Positions 1,855 through 42,699 are shown, numbered from the stretch's first letter. The stretch is DNA of 44,067 bases from a virus (IMGVR_UViG_2909303794_000010:1-44067); one strand, 5' to 3'. Notes: generated by a model from the sequence alone, not told the origin. Translations and numbers: made by a program.

Positions 1855-3189
1855 ATGTTTAGCTTAATCATGGCCGGAGAACCGGACGTTTTTGACCGCT
1901 GGCCGTGTATGGATCCTAAGCTTAAAGAAGGCAAGGATAGCTTCTCGATGTCCCGCATGCTAGAAGGCACCCCAAGCGATATTTACAGTAAATTAACACC
2001 AATAAGACCTGATACCTTAAGAGAACTCGCCAAGCTACCGGTGTTGTTCATGACCGAAACTTATACAAAAGATGATGAATATGATACAAACAAGTACATC
2101 AGGATCAGGCTTGGGGAAATAAAAAATTTACATAAAGATGGTGGCGATATTTTATTTTCTTTCAAGATTAATCATGATTTTGGAGAAATAACAAACCCCC
2201 AAACGGCATTATATAAAGAAACCCTGGGACTAGGAGCTTTCGGGTTAAGTCGTACACATTGGGCAGTAAAAGATAAGGATTTGAATATTGTTCTGGAATG
2301 GCTTGGTTTAAACAAGAAAAATAACCATTCGAAAGGTACAATCAAATTAAAAAAACAAACATACCCAGTAGCCGAGAATATCATAGATTATCTTAATTTT
2401 ATTAAGAAATACCATCATGATGGTCTCATTACCTTTTATCGTGGACACTCTAAAAGCTCATATGAGCTTGTCCCCTCTCTTTACAGAAAAAATCAAAACG
2501 GGACGTACAGGCATCTTGCTTCAGAATCTGATTTAGTACGTGAAATACTCAGCGCAAGACCAAATGAATTTAAGGAGGATAAATTTACGATTGATAAACT
2601 TGTCCGCATGCAGCATTATGGCTTGCCTACGAGACTCCTAGATATTACATCTAACCCACTGATAGCATTATATTTTGCTTGCTGTTCGAACCCCGATGAA
2701 AACGGACAGGTGATTTCGTTTTCAACAAACAGAAAGAAAATTAAATATTTCGACTCAGATACAGTTAGCTGTATAGCAAACTTATCACTTTTATCTTACG
2801 ATGAGCTGGAAAAATTGTCATCCATTGATGCCAGAAAAGGTACTACAGAGGTATCTGAAATCACTGATAAACTTGCGGACCTTATACAGAATGAAAAATC
2901 ATATTTCAGAAGCAGAATAATTCCTGATGACTTAAAGAAAGTTGTTTTCCTTAAGGCTAAAATAAATAATGAACGCATACAGTCTCAGGCTGGCGCCTTT
3001 CTTCTGTTCGGACTTGATCCAATTTTGCCGGAAACAGATGCTGAGTTTCCTCTTAACAGACTCGAGATAACAAACAAAAATAAAATTCTGGAAGAGCTGG
3101 CGCAGCTTAATATATCCGAAAGCACTGTATACCCCAGCATGGAGAAAACGGCAGCGGAAATTACAAAAAAGTTTTTATCGGTATCATAA
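1855..3189 (+). CDS. FRG-domain protein (444 aa) with an unassigned N-terminal region of ~190 aa
   Basis: Motifs FYRGHS ... VRMQHYGLPTRLLDITSNPLIALYFAC match the FRG-domain signature as I recall it. RBS AGGAGA 6 nt upstream of the ATG. AT-rich. Confidence 0.6.
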   Translation: MFSLIMAGEPDVFDRWPCMDPKLKEGKDSFSMSRMLEGTPSDIYSKLTPIRPDTLRELAKLPVLFMTETYTKDDEYDTNKYIRIRLGEIKNLHKDGGDILFSFKINHDFGEITNPQTALYKETLGLGAFGLSRTHWAVKDKDLNIVLEWLGLNKKNNHSKGTIKLKKQTYPVAENIIDYLNFIKKYHHDGLITFYRGHSKSSYELVPSLYRKNQNGTYRHLASESDLVREILSARPNEFKEDKFTIDKLVRMQHYGLPTRLLDITSNPLIALYFACCSNPDENGQVISFSTNRKKIKYFDSDTVSCIANLSLLSYDELEKLSSIDARKGTTEVSEITDKLADLIQNEKSYFRSRIIPDDLKKVVFLKAKINNERIQSQAGAFLLFGLDPILPETDAEFPLNRLEITNKNKILEELAQLNISESTVYPSMEKTAAEITKKFLSVS

Positions 3190-3390
3190 AGGGATAAACT
3201 AAAGGCAACGAAAACCAAGACTGCACAGTCTTCAAGGTGGAACTACTCATCAGGGGGCGGTTTCAGACTCAGGGTGAAAAATCGGAAGCTTCAGTGGCCT
3301 TGAACCACCCCCTATAAATTAACATATCTCAATGTTATCAATGTCTGCTTTTAGCACTGAAAGGACAAGCTAACAGAGTGCAGGTCCGGT

Positions 3391-4881
3391 GTGAGTGAAA
3401 GCAATATAAATCATTTACAAACCTCAGAGGATAGAGAATTGTTTACACTATTGTCATTTAACATTACACACAAAGAAAATGAAATATATGATTGTATATT
3501 TACAGATAATCAAAGGCATATACGAAATCTTCCGTTGAGTAGTATTGTTATTGGCGAAAATGGTTCTGGTAAAAGTTATTTGCTATCTCAGATCGCAGAT
3601 TTCTTTAGATTTATTCAAAGAATCATAAGCAAAGAAAAGAAACCATATTACAAATATGAATCTGCATCAGTTTCATATTTGATTGATTCAAACTTAATCG
3701 TTATAAAAAAGGACAGAAATAAGGTTTTGTGTTTTGTTAATGATGTTCCATCTAATATATTCAATGTAATATTACCAACTAAAGTAATAGCTATGTCCTT
3801 TATGGTTAATGATAAGTTTTCTTTTTCGAGGTTCGAGGAAGACGATTTTTATGATTATCGTGGAGTTAGAGCGACGTCTAATGCTTCTTATACTAGTACA
3901 ATTAAAAGAATGATAACCAACTCATTAATATTGTCGATAGGCTATAGAGATAAACTAAAGGCGGTAAAAGATACTTTGCATTTTTTGGGCATGAGTGAAA
4001 AATTAGCTATTACTTACAATCTCAACAGGAAAACTTTATTAAAAAAACAACCACCACTTAACACCATACTAAAAAAAATAGATGCAATTTTGCGACGAAA
4101 GCAGTACGTTAATGAGAATGATCTTTATAAAATTAAAGAAAATCCAGAAGTCATACTTCATGATATAGCTGTTTTGAGCGAAGAATGCAAGGAGAAAAAT
4201 AGTAGAATACATCTTACCCTTGACCTTAGTGATGAAGGGGGAGTTGTTAAAAAATCATTATTCCAGTCTTTATCACGCTTGGAAAAATTAGAGTTTATTT
4301 CTAACCCTGACGTTGAATTCTACAAAAAAGATAATTTTTCATTTGAAGAAACTAGTTCTGGTGAAAAGAATATTATTTTTACCATTCTTAATTTAATTGC
4401 AAGCATCAAAAATAACTCATTGCTTTTAATTGATGAGCCAGAATTGAGCTTGCACCCTACCTGGCAAATGAAATACATAAATTTCATAAAGAAATCAATA
4501 GCTTATAATTTTGACTGTCACCTTATATTTGCATCACATTCACATTTTATGGTGTCGGATTTAGAATCAGAATCCTCATCACTAATATCTATAAATCAAT
4601 GTAATGGGAAAAGAATATGTGAGCACATTGAATATAGCACATATGCTTGGTCCGTAGAAAATATACTGTACAAGGTTTTTCATTTACGTACCATTAGAAA
4701 TGCTCAAGTCGAAATGGATCTTTATGAATTATCAGGTCTCATATCTCAAAAAAGCTCAGATATTAAGAGAATGGAGGAAATCCTTACGCATTTGGAAAGG
4801 ATAGTGTTAGATGTAAACGATCCCTTAAATATGATAATAGAACAAGCTAGAATCTATATTGGTGGCTACCATGATAAATAA
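3391..4881 (+). CDS. P-loop ATPase of the AAA_15/AAA_21 (OLD/ABC-like) type, Septu PtuA-like
   Basis: Walker A GENGSGKS and Walker B-like LLLIDEPELSLHP; ~496 aa; start is GTG at 3391 with a weak RBS. Confidence 0.65.
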   Translation: MSESNINHLQTSEDRELFTLLSFNITHKENEIYDCIFTDNQRHIRNLPLSSIVIGENGSGKSYLLSQIADFFRFIQRIISKEKKPYYKYESASVSYLIDSNLIVIKKDRNKVLCFVNDVPSNIFNVILPTKVIAMSFMVNDKFSFSRFEEDDFYDYRGVRATSNASYTSTIKRMITNSLILSIGYRDKLKAVKDTLHFLGMSEKLAITYNLNRKTLLKKQPPLNTILKKIDAILRRKQYVNENDLYKIKENPEVILHDIAVLSEECKEKNSRIHLTLDLSDEGGVVKKSLFQSLSRLEKLEFISNPDVEFYKKDNFSFEETSSGEKNIIFTILNLIASIKNNSLLLIDEPELSLHPTWQMKYINFIKKSIAYNFDCHLIFASHSHFMVSDLESESSSLISINQCNGKRICEHIEYSTYAWSVENILYKVFHLRTIRNAQVEMDLYELSGLISQKSSDIKRMEEILTHLERIVLDVNDPLNMIIEQARIYIGGYHDK

Positions 4882-35352: not shown

Positions 35353-35846
35353 TAAGCCCCCACGTAATTCCCTGAGAGATACCACTCTTCACCTGATGCA
35401 GCCCGCTTACTGCTTTTCCGTAAACACCGTTCACGACGCGCCAGAAAATTGTTTCGTTCTGGCTGGGAGTGGCTTTCACGGAATGCCTCCATCCACACCG
35501 TTGCAGCACGACGGTATAAGCCCCTGGACTCCAGTTCTTCCGCCTGGCGGGTCAGGCACAAAATCACACGGGGATCGTTAGTGCCGACATAGAAATTGCG
35601 CACAGGTCTGGTTTCACGAACTGGTTGTGGTTCCGGTTCCTGCGCTCTCTCAGTCAGGCGCGGGAAATGTCTGCGTGTATCTCCTTCACAACGGTGAGCC
35701 ACACGCCCACTCTGACGTAACTTGCTTGCTGACTGCAGAACGCGCTGCCGTGAGTAACCGGCAAAAGCATCCGCAATATCTCCGGAAGTACAGCCCGGAT
35801 GGGCTTCAATGAATTTCTGAACGTCATTCAAAAGACTCATGCTCAC
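35352..35846 (-). CDS. protein with PerC-like C-terminal domain (transcriptional activator family)
   Basis: AEELESRGLYRRAATVWMEAF...ERNNFLARRERCL resembles the PerC/Pch motif as I recall it. Confidence 0.5.
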   Translation of the reverse strand: MSMSLLNDVQKFIEAHPGCTSGDIADAFAGYSRQRVLQSASKLRQSGRVAHRCEGDTRRHFPRLTERAQEPEPQPVRETRPVRNFYVGTNDPRVILCLTRQAEELESRGLYRRAATVWMEAFRESHSQPERNNFLARRERCLRKSSKRAASGEEWYLSGNYVGA

Positions 35847-36784
35847 CCCCTGAATCCTGCCGGGATCTGGCTGTAGTCCACGTTGTCGTAACTGGCTTTG
35901 AAGTACGGGTCTTCGCGTTTTTCGGTGTACGTGCTGACGGACGGCGATAAGCGCAGGGAAAGCTCATCCCATTTTTCCCGCAGCTTCGACGGGCTGAGCA
36001 CGTTACGGCACCAGAACGGATCGCGACTGACGCGGCTGTACATCTCGCAGATTTGTTTATGAGTACGACCATCCTGCACACACATCAGGCGAATTTCGTT
36101 TGCCCAGGCTGTCCAGTTCGGTTCTTTGGGACGAACCACCTCGCCGTCACATTCGGCGGCCTGCTCGTACAGGGCGATGATTTTTTTCCAGAGCCACTGT
36201 GCGCAGGTCAAATCATCCTGCGTTCCCCACTGGCGCTTTTTAGGGCTGAATACAACCGCATCAGGATGGCGAGTTAAAAACTCCTGTTCAGCCGTCTGCG
36301 TGTCCGGTTGCGAAGCGTCCGGACGAGAAGTTTTTTTATCTGACGGATCATGTTTTGATTTTACTGACGGATCCCCGCCAGATTCTGACGGGTGAAAAAC
36401 CGCTTTTTTGCCAGATTTCGACGCATCAAATTTTGACGGGTCAGATTTTGATGCGTCAGATTTTGACGGGTCAGAATCTGACAGTTGAGAAAATGCCGCT
36501 GCCTGAAGCTTCGCAACGTTAAGCTGATAAACATTCGACGCATTGCGGTTACCCTGGCGACGCGCCTTACGCGTTAACCAGCCTTCTGCTTCCAGCCGTG
36601 CGATAGCCGTTCTGACGGTACTCATTCCCGCGCCAATCTGGCGGGCAATGGTTTCAATTGATGGCCAGCACACACCTTCGTCATTACTGAAATCAGCCAG
36701 GCGGGCCATAATTGCCACGCTGGATAATTTCATGCCTGATGCAGCGCAACCATCCCATACATAGCCGGTTAATTTAGTGCTCAT
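35843..36784 (-). CDS. replication initiator, lambda O-like, with in-gene iterons
   Basis: N-terminal HTH-like region, central repeat linker DPSKSDASKSDPSKFDASKS encoded by DNA iterons, C-terminal replication-type domain. Confidence 0.65.
   Translation of the reverse strand: MSTKLTGYVWDGCAASGMKLSSVAIMARLADFSNDEGVCWPSIETIARQIGAGMSTVRTAIARLEAEGWLTRKARRQGNRNASNVYQLNVAKLQAAAFSQLSDSDPSKSDASKSDPSKFDASKSGKKAVFHPSESGGDPSVKSKHDPSDKKTSRPDASQPDTQTAEQEFLTRHPDAVVFSPKKRQWGTQDDLTCAQWLWKKIIALYEQAAECDGEVVRPKEPNWTAWANEIRLMCVQDGRTHKQICEMYSRVSRDPFWCRNVLSPSKLREKWDELSLRLSPSVSTYTEKREDPYFKASYDNVDYSQIPAGFRG
36340..36482. repeat. iteron array (candidate phage replication origin) inside the O-like gene
   Basis: About 7 tandem ~15-16-bp units with consensus ATTTTGACGGGTCAG (attttgacgggtcag x2, attttgatgcgtcag, atttcgacgcatcaa, attctgacgggtgaa ...). 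Confidence 0.7.
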
Positions 36785-37924: not shown

Positions 37925-38014
37925 ACAATATGTACCTCCGGTGTACATATTACATGATTGAAATGAACCTTCAAGATACTTGTACCTTAACGGTACAAGG
38001 GTTTTAATTTCGTT
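37925..38014. promoter_or_regulatory. divergent repressor/cro control region with operator palindrome
   Basis: Perfect palindrome cttgtacc-ttaac-ggtacaag at 37979-37999 plus a further TGTACC-containing imperfect repeat at 37931-37947, between the divergent genes. Confidence 0.65.
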
Positions 38015-38689
38015 ATGAAAACAATCCATGACATCCGGCGGTCTAACGCCAGAAAACTGAGAGATGGTGTTGGCGGGAATTCTTCCTTTGCCACTATGAT
38101 TGATCGCGAGCCAACCCAGACCAGCAGGTTTATGGGAGATGGTGCTACTAAAAATATCGGTGACAGCATGGCACGACACATCGAAAAATGTTTCGACCTG
38201 CCTGTCGGATGGCTCGATCAAGAACACCAGACAACCAACATCACAAAAAAACCTGATGTTTCAATCACTAATAAACAAATCACATTAGTCCCTGTCATAT
38301 CATGGGTACAGGCCGGAGCATGGAAAGAAGTTGGATATTCTGAGGTTGATTTGAGCACAGCAGAAACGTATCCCTGCCCTGTACCCTGTGGGGAAATGAC
38401 TTATATCTTGCGGGTGATAGGTGATTCAATGATTGATGAGTACCGCCCGGGAGACATGATTTTTGTCGATCCTGAAGTACCTGCCTGCCACGGTGACGAC
38501 GTTATTGCATTGATGCACGATACAGGTGAAACCACCTTCAAAAGGTTGATAGAAGATGGGACACAGCGTTATCTCAAAGCGTTAAACCCAAACTGGCCTG
38601 AGCCTTACATTAAGATCAACGGTAATTGCTCTATAATTGGAACTGTGATTTTCTCAGGAAAACCAAGAAGATACAAAATCAAAGCCTAA
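38015..38689 (+). CDS. CI-like prophage repressor (HTH plus S24 LexA-like peptidase domain)
   Basis: C-terminal ...RVIGDSMIDEY...FKRLIEDGTQRYLKALNPNWPEPYIKINGNCSIIG resembles P22 C2 / lambda CI. Confidence 0.85.
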   Translation: MKTIHDIRRSNARKLRDGVGGNSSFATMIDREPTQTSRFMGDGATKNIGDSMARHIEKCFDLPVGWLDQEHQTTNITKKPDVSITNKQITLVPVISWVQAGAWKEVGYSEVDLSTAETYPCPVPCGEMTYILRVIGDSMIDEYRPGDMIFVDPEVPACHGDDVIALMHDTGETTFKRLIEDGTQRYLKALNPNWPEPYIKINGNCSIIGTVIFSGKPRRYKIKA

Positions 38690-38701
38690 TCAATGTTTAT
38701 G

Positions 38702-38724
38702 AACCTGCTTCGGCAGGTTTTTTT
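38702..38724 (+). terminator. intrinsic terminator after the repressor gene
   Basis: aacctgc-ttcg-gcaggtt hairpin followed by a T tract. Confidence 0.7.
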
Positions 38725-38728
38725 ATAC

Positions 38729-38762
38729 TTGACAATGTACCTTTGAGATACATAATGTACCC
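38729..38762 (+). promoter_or_regulatory. pL-like early promoter with operator half-sites
   Basis: TTGACA - 16 nt - CATAAT, with ATGTACC repeats overlapping both hexamers (same half-site as the cro-side operator). Confidence 0.6.
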
Positions 38763-38860
38763 AAGAGAAACAACAAACAGGCAGGACGCCCACGAAGTAG
38801 CCGCCGGTGGCGTATGAATGACCGGATGATTCGTTAAATACTATGTGTAAGAGAGCGCAA

Positions 38861-39064
38861 ATGAACCGTTATTTCACATGCTCGTTTTGTGGCGCAAACG
38901 AGCTGCAGGCAAAAAAAATCATCGCCAAAGGCGGAAAAGATGAAGTTGCTATCTGCTCTGAGTGCGTAGTCTTGTGTGTCGGGGCATTAATCAATATCAG
39001 CACAACTATTCAGTTCACACCAAATGAGAATGCGCCTTTAGATGCGCGGAAATCTGGAGGTTAA
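38861..39064 (+). CDS. small zinc-ribbon protein resembling the ClpX N-terminal zinc-binding domain
   Basis: FTCSFCGANELQAKKIIAKGGKDEVAICSECVVLC parallels the ClpX C4 motif (CSFCG...ICDEC) as I recall it; start taken at MNRYF with RBS AAGAGAG. Confidence 0.55.
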   Translation: MNRYFTCSFCGANELQAKKIIAKGGKDEVAICSECVVLCVGALINISTTIQFTPNENAPLDARKSGG

Positions 39065-39072
39065 AGAACAAA

Positions 39073-39348
39073 ATGAAAGTCCAGATTTTAAACAATAGTG
39101 GTGAAGTCGTTTGGTCATACGACATAGCCGCTCCTGTAGATCAGAGCGGCGATAGCTGGACCAATGGGAAACATCAGATTATGGCTGGAGTTGTGTTCTC
39201 TTTACGCCGTGCTTTAGAACAGGCTGAAGTCTTTCCATCAGACCCTGAATGGAAATGGCCTTTTTCTATTTGTCCAAATTCGGAGAGTACATTTCAGAAA
39301 ATTGGTCAGAAAGTCGCACTCGAAGAGCATCAGCCAACTGTTTCCTGA
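39073..39348 (+). CDS. hypothetical protein (91 aa)
   Basis: ORF 9 bp after the preceding gene in the pL-like operon. Confidence 0.45.
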   Translation: MKVQILNNSGEVVWSYDIAAPVDQSGDSWTNGKHQIMAGVVFSLRRALEQAEVFPSDPEWKWPFSICPNSESTFQKIGQKVALEEHQPTVS

Positions 39349-39511
39349 TTTTTTCAGGTAACTCGTCGGCATCGCAGAAACAACAACGCTCGATCATGTT
39401 GAAAGCCGATTCGTAGAACTGTTTCTGCTGAGTGTCGCTGAGACAGGAAAAGAGCGACGTTACGATGATTTTATTAATTGCATTATCAAGTTCTTTTTCA
39501 TCAAAAGTCAT
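39266..39511 (-). CDS. hypothetical protein (81 aa)
   Basis: RBS AAGGAAAA upstream of the ATG at 39511; convergent with and overlapping the 3' end of the preceding plus-strand ORF. Confidence 0.4.
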   Translation of the reverse strand: MTFDEKELDNAINKIIVTSLFSCLSDTQQKQFYESAFNMIERCCFCDADELPEKIRKQLADALRVRLSDQFSEMYSPNLDK

Positions 39512-40024
39512 TTGATTTTCCTTTTATGTATACGGGCTTAAAAGGATACCACCGAGCCTGAAGTGGTGAAAAGACAGGCACATAACAGCTAAGTATTTTC
39601 AACCAAAGAGAATCCTTAGCGTTGTGGTGAATGCGGCTCAGCGCACGCGGGTTAAGGTTGAGGCTGACAGTCGACCTTCTGTGGATACCCACCCGCCTGG
39701 TGTGCAACCTTCGCCAGGCACCGGGAGGCACCCGGCACCACAACTTTATGCTGTGTGTAGTCTTGGCGGTACCAGTTTGTACCCTTGCTTCCGGCTGGTA
39801 TCGCCCTTTTTACAAAACAGAGAAGAGCATCACCGGACGACGGGCTTATAACCCAATCCATCCGGGCGGCTGCTACCGCAGGTGTTCTTCTCTGTTTTGT
39901 GGAGAAACTAACCGCCCCTGCGGGGGCATTTATGGAAATGTAATTGACTCAATAATCGCCGGACGGTGAGGGCTTCCTTTTACCCGAATTCAGCGCGGTG
40001 CAGCGCATATACGTGGAGAACAAA

Positions 40025-41219: not shown

Positions 41220-41569
41220 TGGAGCCATACAGCCTCACACTCGATGAGGCCTGTCATTTTCTCAAGATATCCAGACCGACTGCCATTAACTGGATACGCA
41301 CAGGGCGTCTTCAGGCAACACGCAAAGATCCCACTAAGAATAAATCTCCTTACCTCACAACACGACAAGCCTGCATTGCGGCTCTTCAGTCTCCGCTGCA
41401 TACTGTCCAGGTGAGCGCGGGTGATGGCATAACAGAGGAAAGAAAATGTCACTCTTCCGCAGAGGTGAAATATGGTACGCCAGTTTCACATTGCCGAACG
41501 GTAAAAGATTTAAACAGTCTCTTGGAACAAAGGACAAAAGGCAGGCGACAGAACTCCATGACAAGCTAA
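41219..41569 (+). CDS. excisionase-like HTH protein (end uncertain; overlaps the integrase start)
   Basis: [30 protein letters not shown] is an AlpA/Xis-type HTH; RBS AGGTGA before the ATG at 41219. Confidence 0.55.
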
Positions 41570-42609
41570 AGGCTGAAGCATGGCGGGTCAGCAAACTTGG
41601 TGAAATACCTGATATAACGTTCGAGGAAGCGTGTGTCAGGTGGCTTGAAGAGAAAGCACATAAAAAATCACTGGACGATGACAAAAGCCGGATCGGATTC
41701 TGGCTTCAACATTTCGCAGGAATGCAACTAAGAGACATTACTGAATCAAAAATTTATTCAGCAATGCAGAAAATGACGAACCGGCGTCATGAGGAAAACT
41801 GGAAACTCAGGGCAGAAGCATGCAGAAAAAAAGGGAAACCTGTTCCAGAATACACGCCAAAACCAGCGTCCGTTGCAACGAAGGCTACGCATCTTTCATT
41901 TATAAAGGCCCTACTAAGAGCCGCAGAGCGTGAATGGAAAATGCTGGATAAGGCACCAATTATTAAAGTGCCTCAACCAAAGAATAAACGGATCCGCTGG
42001 CTGGAGCCCCATGAAGCACAAAGGCTGATTGATGAATGTCCGGAGCCATTAAAGTCTGTTGTTGAATTTGCACTGGCAACAGGTTTAAGACGCTCGAACA
42101 TCATCAACCTTGAATGGCAACAAATAGATATGCAGCGCCGGGTGGCATGGATAAACCCGGAAGAGAGTAAATCAAACCGCGCAATTGGCGTTGCGCTGAA
42201 TGATACTGCATGTCGCGTATTGAAAAAACAAATCGGGAATCATCACCGTTGGGTATTTGTGTACAAGGAAAGCTGTACCAAACCAGACGGAACGAAAGCG
42301 CCAACAGTAAGGAAGATGCGGTATGACGCAAACACAGCCTGGAAAGCGGCGCTGAGACGGGCTGGTATTGATGATTTCAGATTTCACGACTTGAGACACA
42401 CCTGGGCAAGTTGGCTGGTTCAAGCCGGAGTCCCGTTGTCAGTGTTACAGGAAATGGGAGGCTGGGAGTCTATCGAAATGGTTCGTCGATATGCTCACCT
42501 TGCACCTAATCACCTTACCGAACACGCACGGCAAATAGACTCGATCCTGAACCCATCGGTCCCAAATTTGTCCCAGTCAAAAAATAAGGAAGGTACTAAT
42601 GATGTGTAA
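41446..42609 (+). CDS. tyrosine integrase (prophage integrase)
   Basis: 387 aa with [10 protein letters not shown]...Y-type C-terminal catalytic region; adjacent to the tRNA attachment site. Confidence 0.9.
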
Positions 42610-42622
42610 CTTATTGATTTAA

Positions 42623-42669
42623 ATGGTGCCGATAATAGGAGTCGAACCTACGACCTTCGCATTACGAAT
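42623..42669. repeat. right att direct repeat (within the tRNA 3' end)
   Basis: Identical to 1232-1278. Confidence 0.8.
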
Positions 42670-42699
42670 GCGCTGCTCTACCAACTGAGCTATATCGGC
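42624..42699 (-). tRNA. thrW: tRNA-Thr (anticodon CGU)
   Basis: Reverse complement reads GCCGATATAGCTCAGTTGGTAGAGCAGCGCATTCGTAATGCGAAGGTCGTAGGTTCGACTCCTATTATCGGCACCA: cloverleaf-compatible, anticodon loop TT-CGT-AA, T-loop GGTTCGACTCC, encoded CCA. Confidence 0.9.

Follow-up and report, generated by a model that had tools for sequence, protein, structure and literature searches.

A free-standing homologue of the ClpX zinc-binding domain in an SfV-like prophage of Escherichia coli and its possible action on ClpXP

We describe a 67-aa phage protein that is a specific homologue of the N-terminal zinc-binding domain (ZBD) of ClpX. It is encoded in a viral sequence of 44,067 nucleotides (IMGVR_UViG_2909303794_000010; this whole stretch is referred to below as the window), where its gene, which is real and under purifying selection, is predicted to be the first in a repressor-controlled leftward early operon (Table 1). 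Unlike ClpX, in which the domain is followed by a linker and an AAA+ module, the phage protein is free-standing, lacks both, and is encoded by a phage behind what appears to be a lytic promoter. As to its function, we put forward, tentatively and as something short of probable, that it may act in trans as a decoy for the ligands of the ClpX ZBD and so selectively damp the N-domain-dependent part of ClpXP proteolysis. The domain assignment is already present in RefSeq and in PHROGs.

Table 1. Features in and around the ZBD gene, with coordinates counted from the first nucleotide of the window
Feature	Coordinates	Strand	Basis
cI-like repressor gene (LexA/UmuD-type), transcribed toward the ZBD gene	38015..38689	+	Pfam PF00717 (Peptidase_S24), 92.8 bits
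Intrinsic (rho-independent-type) terminator-like hairpin and T-run, predicted to end the repressor transcript	38701..38720	+	Sequence
Predicted pL-like sigma-70 promoter, TTGACA-16-CATAAT	38729..38756	+	11 of 12 consensus matches; identical in SfV
Operator-like dyad ATGTACC-N5-GATACAT, ATGTACCTTTGAGATACAT	38735..38753	+	Overlaps the -10 hexamer and the spacer of the promoter
Single-gene cassette (own ribosome-binding site and ORF), boundaries approximate	38836..39070	+	SfV alignment
Gene for the stand-alone ClpX-type ZBD protein, 67 aa	38861..39064	+	RefSeq WP_001083098.1; dN/dS
ZBD core, residues 4-46	38870..38998	+	HMMER against 2ds5; AlphaFold2; Foldseek
Homologue of SfV orf33, the gene that follows in the operon (phrog_3195, "unknown function")	39073..39348	+	SfV alignment; PHROG
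STnc100-like small-RNA element, same leftward operon	39599..39814	+	Rfam RF02076, full model length

Specific homology to the ClpX zinc-binding domain

The ORF comprises 67 codons (204 nt), from an ATG at 38861 to a TAA at 39062-39064. It is present as described in the first-pass annotation of the window, which had listed an ORF of ~67 aa and whose peptide, FTCSFCGANELQAKKIIAKGGKDEVAICSECVVLC, exactly matches the translation. A second in-frame ATG is located upstream, at 38843, and would yield a protein of 73 aa. The start at 38861 is preferred because all homologues begin with MN.Y(F/Y)TCSFCG, a purine-rich AAGAGAG is found 5 nt 5' of this ATG, and the CDS called by PGAP and RefSeq, where it is named "ClpX C4-type zinc finger protein" (WP_001083098.1), consists of the same 204 nt.

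Selection was analyzed over codons 2-46 in seven lineages (the window and loci L042, L045, L049, L064, L067, and L085). Saturation is reached at synonymous sites (pS of 0.6-1.0), with pN of ~0.2, and dN/dS is 0.05-0.30 wherever dS could be calculated. At least 14 positions are invariant in the alignment of the clade, among them four Cys residues. The last ~20 residues at the C-terminus vary and are predicted to be disordered, and this short tail probably is. A short ORF with a variable C-terminus, of which frameshifted variants (P0004 and P0008) occur, could be spurious or decaying and without function. However, residues 1-46 are under strong purifying selection, the Cys residues and further positions have stayed invariant despite the saturated synonymous sites, the Pfam match is significant, and the fold prediction is confident. 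For practical purposes, the invariance and selection analyses refute the idea of a spurious ORF and leave it a negligible probability.

The protein matches the zf-C4_ClpX domain (Pfam ID PF06689) with 41.4 bits (cut-off 27; E value of 1.3e-10) over positions 2-34 of the 39-position profile. No second Pfam family was found at E<0.1, and an Ogr/Delta-type or other zinc-finger regulator was rejected, as no such family appeared at that threshold. The NCBIfam models for ClpX, TIGR00382 and PRK05342, score 22.7 and 25.8 bits versus cut-offs of 370 and 359, respectively, and their matches are confined to profile positions ~6-48, which is what an isolated N-domain would give. Given its length of 67 aa, the absence of an AAA+ module, and scores below the equivalog cut-offs, the protein is not a ClpX. 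Its best sequence matches in the PDB are the entries for the E. coli ClpX ZBD (2ds5, 2ds6, and 2ds8, as well as 1ovx; the HMMER alignment is to 2ds5). BLASTP against residues 11-44 of E. coli ClpX, whose sequence was checked against 8e91_A, shows 16 identical residues out of 37 (43%) with one 3-residue gap.

The predicted zinc ligands C7 (38879-38881), C10 (38888-38890), C32 (38954-38956), and C35 (38963-38965) form a CxxC...CxxC arrangement that is invariant in all members of the clade. In the AlphaFold2 model (pLDDT of 82-96 for residues 11-50; mean of 77), a zinc knuckle is followed by a β-hairpin with strands at residues 20-22 and 30-32 and by a long helix that starts at residue 33, in the manner of a treble-clef-like fold. 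A Foldseek search of the PDB with this model returns only ClpX ZBD entries (2ds5, 2ds6, and 2ds8) at a probability of 1.0, with target-normalised TM scores of 0.83-0.88, rmsd of 1.2-2.0 Å, and 36-37% identity; the remaining zinc domains all have probabilities below 0.4. Both comparisons that the first-pass annotation had called for, alignment with ClpX N-domains and structure prediction, thus place the protein with the E. coli ClpX ZBD. The similarity goes beyond that of a generic C4 ribbon, as residues other than the zinc ligands are shared and the structural match is specific to the ClpX ZBD. By this relationship, the phage protein would be expected to bind zinc and to dimerise.

In addition to the fold and the four Cys residues of CxxC...CxxC, the phage protein has in common with the E. 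coli ClpX ZBD (1OVX and 2DS5-2DS8) the CSFCG knuckle; a Phe (F9) that is the equivalent of ClpX F16 and is invariant in the phage clade; a strand that reads KKIIA (K-K/R-I-I/V-A across the clade) where ClpX has RKLIA; and the ICxECVxLC motif, including the non-ligand Cys43. However, the two CxxC pairs are separated by 21 residues in the phage protein and by 18 in E. coli ClpX, owing to a conserved 3-residue insertion in the phage β-hairpin. The inserted hairpin reads KGGKDE in this protein, and the nearly invariant KGG(K/R)DE of the clade suggests that these proteins may have a binding specificity of their own. The parallel to the ClpX zinc ribbon that had been drawn earlier for both flanking residues and spacing therefore stands for the former (CSFCG and ICxECVxLC) and fails for the latter. 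Other changes affect the surface of the domain. ClpX Tyr34 is replaced in the phage clade by an invariant Ala, and ClpX I46 corresponds to A42 in the phage protein and to A, T, V, I, K, or L across the clade. One of the two documented ligand-patch residues is kept, F16 but not I46. The residues D41, N44, D45, R48, and E49 on the acidic helix face of ClpX are replaced by V, V, G, I, and N, making the phage helix hydrophobic or neutral where that of ClpX is acidic.

These helix changes bear on whether the phage protein might pair with the ClpX N-domain itself, either forming a heterodimer or docking onto the dimer of ZBDs. It would then serve as a dominant-negative or retargeting subunit that blocks or alters the substrate choice of ClpX and would not titrate its ligands. 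ZBDs are constitutive dimers (PMC7226468), and a helix more hydrophobic than that of ClpX could favour avid pairing. On the other hand, the interface residues differ between the phage protein and ClpX. The ZBD dimer is formed via the helix and the hairpin, according to its Pfam description; in ClpX, this dimer is said to be highly stable, and the hexamer tethers the partner domain at a high local concentration. We consider such pairing unlikely.

Position of the gene behind a phage repressor

Sequence comparison shows the window to be a myovirus prophage of E. coli that is SfI/SfII/SfV-like, of the SfV/e14-like type. Its structural genes are 97-98% identical to those of Shigella phages SfII and SfI, and its immunity region is 97% identical to that of SfV and bears the e14-type gene names ymfK, ymfT, and ymfL in RefSeq. 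The repressor, terminator, promoter, leader, and orf33 are common to the window and SfV in the alignment of the two.

The repressor gene occupies the same place as SfV cI and as the gene that PGAP annotates as "LexA family protein ymfK," and the equivalent of the terminator-like hairpin behind it carries the annotation of a putative rho-independent terminator in SfV. Next to the dyad that overlaps the predicted promoter, an additional half-site, ATGTACC, is found at 38755-38761. Three similar dyads (37930-37948, 37963-37981, and 37979-37999) are located between cI and the divergent cro-like gene. We infer from this that the dyad is an operator, and the earlier description of the promoter as operator controlled agrees with the overlap of the two elements. 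The promoter and the ZBD ORF, which are on the same strand, are separated by a leader of ~100 nt with no intervening gene. Because of the overlapping dyad and its likeness to the dyads between cI and cro, the arrangement appears to be that of a lambdoid pL with the ZBD ORF in the first position, and transcription of the gene as the first in a repressor-controlled leftward early operon is predicted on these grounds. The same place in a pL-like operon had been assigned to it before, and the position behind the promoter bears this out, as do the homologues, which keep that position behind varied repressors. A gene so placed would be silent in the lysogen, and its product would be among the earliest proteins made upon induction or infection.

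The identity with SfV stops at ~38836 and restarts at ~39071, immediately ahead of the start codon (ATG) of the orf33 homologue. The ~235 bp in between are specific to the window, versus ~45 nt of unrelated sequence in SfV. As the window has this cassette and SfV does not, the ZBD gene is a discrete accessory and not a core regulator of this type of phage. Likewise, the orf33 homologue is part of the context and no partner of the ZBD gene, since SfV carries orf33 without it.

The exact allele is found in 97 of the 5,426 complete E. coli genomes (about 2%) and in about 40 IMG/VR contigs. Homologues with 45-75% identity are encoded by the Salmonella phages 118970_sal3 and F1055 and by further prophage contigs in IMG/VR. 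A scan of species-representative genomes yielded one locus only, in Enterobacter (L085), which indicates that the clade is sporadic and phage-borne and does not represent a core gene. In 118970_sal3, F1055, and the IMG/VR loci L042 to L067, with two exceptions, the homologue is the first ORF after a co-oriented repressor. At least seven different repressors occupy this place (HTH-type proteins of 224, 231, 228, 217, 239, 210, and 208 aa), in addition to a 133-aa regulator in 118970_sal3. One of the exceptions, L066, has no adjoining repressor. In the other, L049, the repressor gene and the ZBD gene with its pL are separated by an opposite-strand ORF of 293 aa (2906-3787, minus strand), in the position of rexAB in lambda; this ORF might be an accessory or defence gene that is expressed in the lysogen. 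No conserved downstream or neighboring partner gene was found across the ZBD loci compared, and this, together with the absence of the cassette from SfV, argues that the ZBD gene acts alone. The conservation of its position with interchangeable immunity modules suggests that being first from pL matters and that the target is something that the hosts, or these phages in general, have in common.

The ZBD gene adjoins a repressor gene at almost every locus, which might point to a regulator of the lysis-lysogeny decision, a protein that binds the upstream S24-type repressor as an anti-repressor or protects or exposes its fragments. In line with this, the ClpX ZBD binds UmuD, a relative of the S24-type (LexA/UmuD-like) repressor; Neher et al. 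are said to have reported in 2003 that UmuD docks on the ClpX N-domain by an SspB-like motif. However, the adjoining repressors are very unlike one another, and one of the adjoining regulators, gp053 of 118970_sal3, is at 133 aa too short for an S24 domain. Further, L066 lacks an adjoining repressor, and SfV has the same cI and operators without the ZBD gene. The adjacency is explained more simply by the pL position, and repressor binding seems to us very improbable.

Relatives of the domain and its possible action on ClpXP

When the domains are compared by their global BLOSUM62 scores, other stand-alone small ZBD proteins reach up to 119, the ZBDs of phage-encoded full-length ClpX proteins 85-100, and tandem-ZBD proteins up to 97, whereas E. 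coli ClpX, with 71, scores lowest of the groups compared. For this reason, a recent capture of the host clpX gene was rejected. The designation of the protein as a phage-encoded mimic of the ClpX ZBD accordingly survives in part: it is a genuine, free-standing homologue of that domain, and it is not a recent copy of the domain of its host. Nearly all of the best 150 relatives in a library of 1.8 billion proteins are small, carrying 1-4 ZBDs without an AAA+ module, and only a few of them are of ClpX length. The ranking of scores and the nature of these relatives indicate that the ZBD gene belongs to an old and diverse population of free ZBDs. Among the PHROG families, it matches phrog_5259 (108 bits) and phrog_20296 (93 bits), both labelled "unknown function." The stand-alone and tandem PF06689 proteins of bacteria and phages share the Pfam family and the PGAP name with the phage protein, and other small single-ZBD proteins share with it the signature AIC(D/S)ECV.LCV, whereas two features set the enterobacterial clade apart, the KGG(K/R)DE hairpin and the constant place of the gene behind a phage repressor. 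The phage-encoded full-length ClpX proteins (IMG/VR loci L068 to L084) have the same Ala in place of Tyr34, in the signature VAICSEC. In contrast to the protein described here, they are complete unfoldases of ~400 aa, encoded by unrelated phages outside their immunity regions.

As PF06689 domains are common outside ClpX, membership in the family implies by itself no action on ClpXP. The phage protein could be an interaction module with the ZBD fold whose target, such as a defence, replication, or division factor, is unrelated to ClpXP, and its resemblance to ClpX would then reflect common ancestry only. The makeup of the best 150 relatives, most of them small proteins of 1-4 ZBDs without AAA+ modules, is consistent with this, as are the comparatively distant relationship to E. 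coli ClpX and the features that are invariant in, and proper to, the clade (KGG(K/R)DE, Ala for Tyr34, and the hydrophobic helix). In addition, early leftward genes of lambdoid phages typically hit diverse host functions, with Gam, Kil, Ral, and cIII of lambda as examples. Yet the likeness to ClpX exceeds the zinc ligands, as it extends to the F16 equivalent, the RKLIA-like strand, and ICxECVxLC, and the only documented ligands of the fold are ClpX adaptors and substrates. The protein does not resemble known defence proteins either: it had no match among the PADLOC-DB defence profiles at E<=0.01, and a component of a defence system was rejected on this basis. Overall, a target unrelated to ClpXP is possible, if doubtful.

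To our knowledge, the docking of ClpX adaptors and of N-domain-dependent substrates is the sole documented function of the ZBD fold. The isolated E. coli ZBD dimerises and, added in trans, inhibits the breakdown of sigma-S by ClpXP via RssB in vitro (PMC7226468), and this inhibition of adaptor-dependent degradation makes an anti-ClpXP decoy plausible. Trigger-factor stimulation depends on the hydrophobic F16/I46 pocket of the ZBD, where the sites for trigger factor and lambda O overlap, SspB and RssB are stated to bind the F16/I46 region, and the ZBD is required for the degradation of lambda O (PMC7804408). With a documented docking role and documented inhibition in trans, a competitor for ligands is the most economical hypothesis. 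In the mechanism that we propose, the phage protein would fold like the ClpX N-domain and dimerise, probably via its C-terminal helix. The free domain would bind the short peptides by which ligands dock on the ClpX N-domain, for example, adaptor tails of the SspB, RssB, and UmuD type and degrons of the lambda O and MuA type. Its competition in trans for ZBD ligands would damp the N-domain-dependent degradation by ClpXP while sparing the N-domain-independent substrates, and one or more phage or host proteins would be stabilised early in lytic growth.

The fold match, the purifying selection, the ClpX-like surface elements, the early position, and the lone action of the gene count in favor of such a decoy. 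Its distance from the host ClpX, the changes at I46 and Y34 and in the helix, and the insertion in the hairpin count against it, as does the wide occurrence of PF06689 in non-ClpX proteins, which makes the fold a general interaction module. That enterobacterial temperate phages use this first leftward early product in trans, whether it is a decoy or poisons the ClpX N-domain by pairing with it, to switch off the N-domain-dependent branch of ClpXP altogether (adaptor-delivered and lambda O/MuA-type substrates) and spare the other substrates is a possibility that we regard with some doubt. The gene at 35843..36784, which had been taken for an O-like initiator that might be protected in this way, gives Pfam matches of the HTH_36/DnaD_N type and none to a lambda O family. 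We find no support for its protection. In the full-text literature, we found no study of the function of any phage stand-alone ZBD or of any member of the clade, and the RefSeq product name occurs there in a single incidental remark on contig filtering.

Several small phage proteins are known to modulate host AAA+ proteases. Lambda cIII, a small protein made from pL, inhibits FtsH, a protease of the host; other examples are lambda RexB (ClpXP, lambda O), T4 PinA and T7 gp4.5 (both Lon), and SPO1 Gp53 (ClpCP). The logic proposed here, in which a small early phage protein alters host proteolysis, would be common to all of them, and cIII is likewise a gene of the pL operon. The phage ZBD would differ from all these proteins, as none of them is known to copy the substrate-docking domain of the protease itself. 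Among the key phage and host regulators whose stability is set by ClpXP are lambda O, MuA, the repressor of Mu, the antitoxin Phd of P1, sigma-S, LexA fragments, UmuD', and FtsZ. If the protein does selectively inhibit the N-domain-dependent branch, the phage ZBD would represent a new class of viral protease modulator that relies on mimicry of the receptor domain of the protease. Phages would then have a previously undescribed route to tune host proteolysis, by copying the receptor domain instead of the substrate, and the protein would provide a simple tool for separating the adaptor-dependent from the adaptor-independent functions of ClpXP in vivo. As the gene is short, appears to act alone, and occurs both in Salmonella prophages and in ~2% of the complete genomes of E. 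coli, these predictions are cheaply testable. If the protein turns out to have no action on ClpXP, it would still offer a compact entry to the many ZBD proteins, stand-alone or tandem, that are uncharacterised.

Additional features of the prophage and of ZBD-containing proteins

Downstream of the ZBD gene, the match to the STnc100 model scores 41.7 bits versus a gathering score of 47 (E value of 1.3e-7), and the ORF-poor conserved block around it is wider, about 39534-39912. Blocks from the STnc100 region are 76-95% identical at most other ZBD loci, including those of Salmonella phages. The segment 39599-39814 is probably a prophage sRNA gene and not a decayed ORF. A weak DicF-like match is seen at 39752-39806, and PGAP annotates 39624-39943 as a frameshifted pseudogene. 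An RNA on the minus strand (fold z score of -4.15) was considered and rejected, as the Rfam near-match, to STnc100, lies on the plus strand.

The ORFs 39073..39348 (plus strand) and 39266..39511 (minus strand) are convergent and overlap by 83 nt. The former matches phrog_3195 with 213 bits, and the latter matches phrog_3311 with 185 bits. PGAP and the SfV annotation retain only the plus-strand ORF, and one of these two families may be built on spurious antisense calls. At the end of the prophage, a gene for tRNA-Thr(CGT) (42624-42699, minus strand) abuts the integrase gene (41446..42609, plus strand) and is likely the attachment site of the prophage.

The genes for full-length ClpX in the IMG/VR loci L068 to L084, for example, those at 3989-5191 in L076 and at 3989-5212 in L079, come from phages that are probably environmental. 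They form a conserved cluster with a gene for a membrane protein of ~500 aa upstream and genes for two small proteins downstream, which by eye we take to resemble ribosomal protein S21 (...KALRKFKKK...) and a small heat-shock protein of the Hsp20/IbpA type. Two to four tandem ZBDs with no AAA+ module are found in hundreds of small bacterial proteins, and one protein of 2,505 aa in the library set P0016 and P0018-P0160 contains 22 ZBD-like stretches. Together, these proteins amount to a large further use of the ClpX zinc domain.

The tails of the homologues differ as well. A docking in cis of a tail that vaguely resembles the XB tails of adaptors was considered and rejected, as the AlphaFold2 model of the longer homologue P0010 leaves the tail unstructured (pLDDT of <50) and without a strand. 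The C-terminal motif of such tails is absent from the protein of the window, whose tail diverges right after NENAPL, where the junction of the cassette lies. The longer homologues P0009, P0010, P0013, and P0022 have the C-terminal motif G-x-(I/L)-x-(I/V)-x-F-x-x-(A/S)-P, and the proteins of L066 and L067 end, at the extreme C-terminus, in GGEITKISL.
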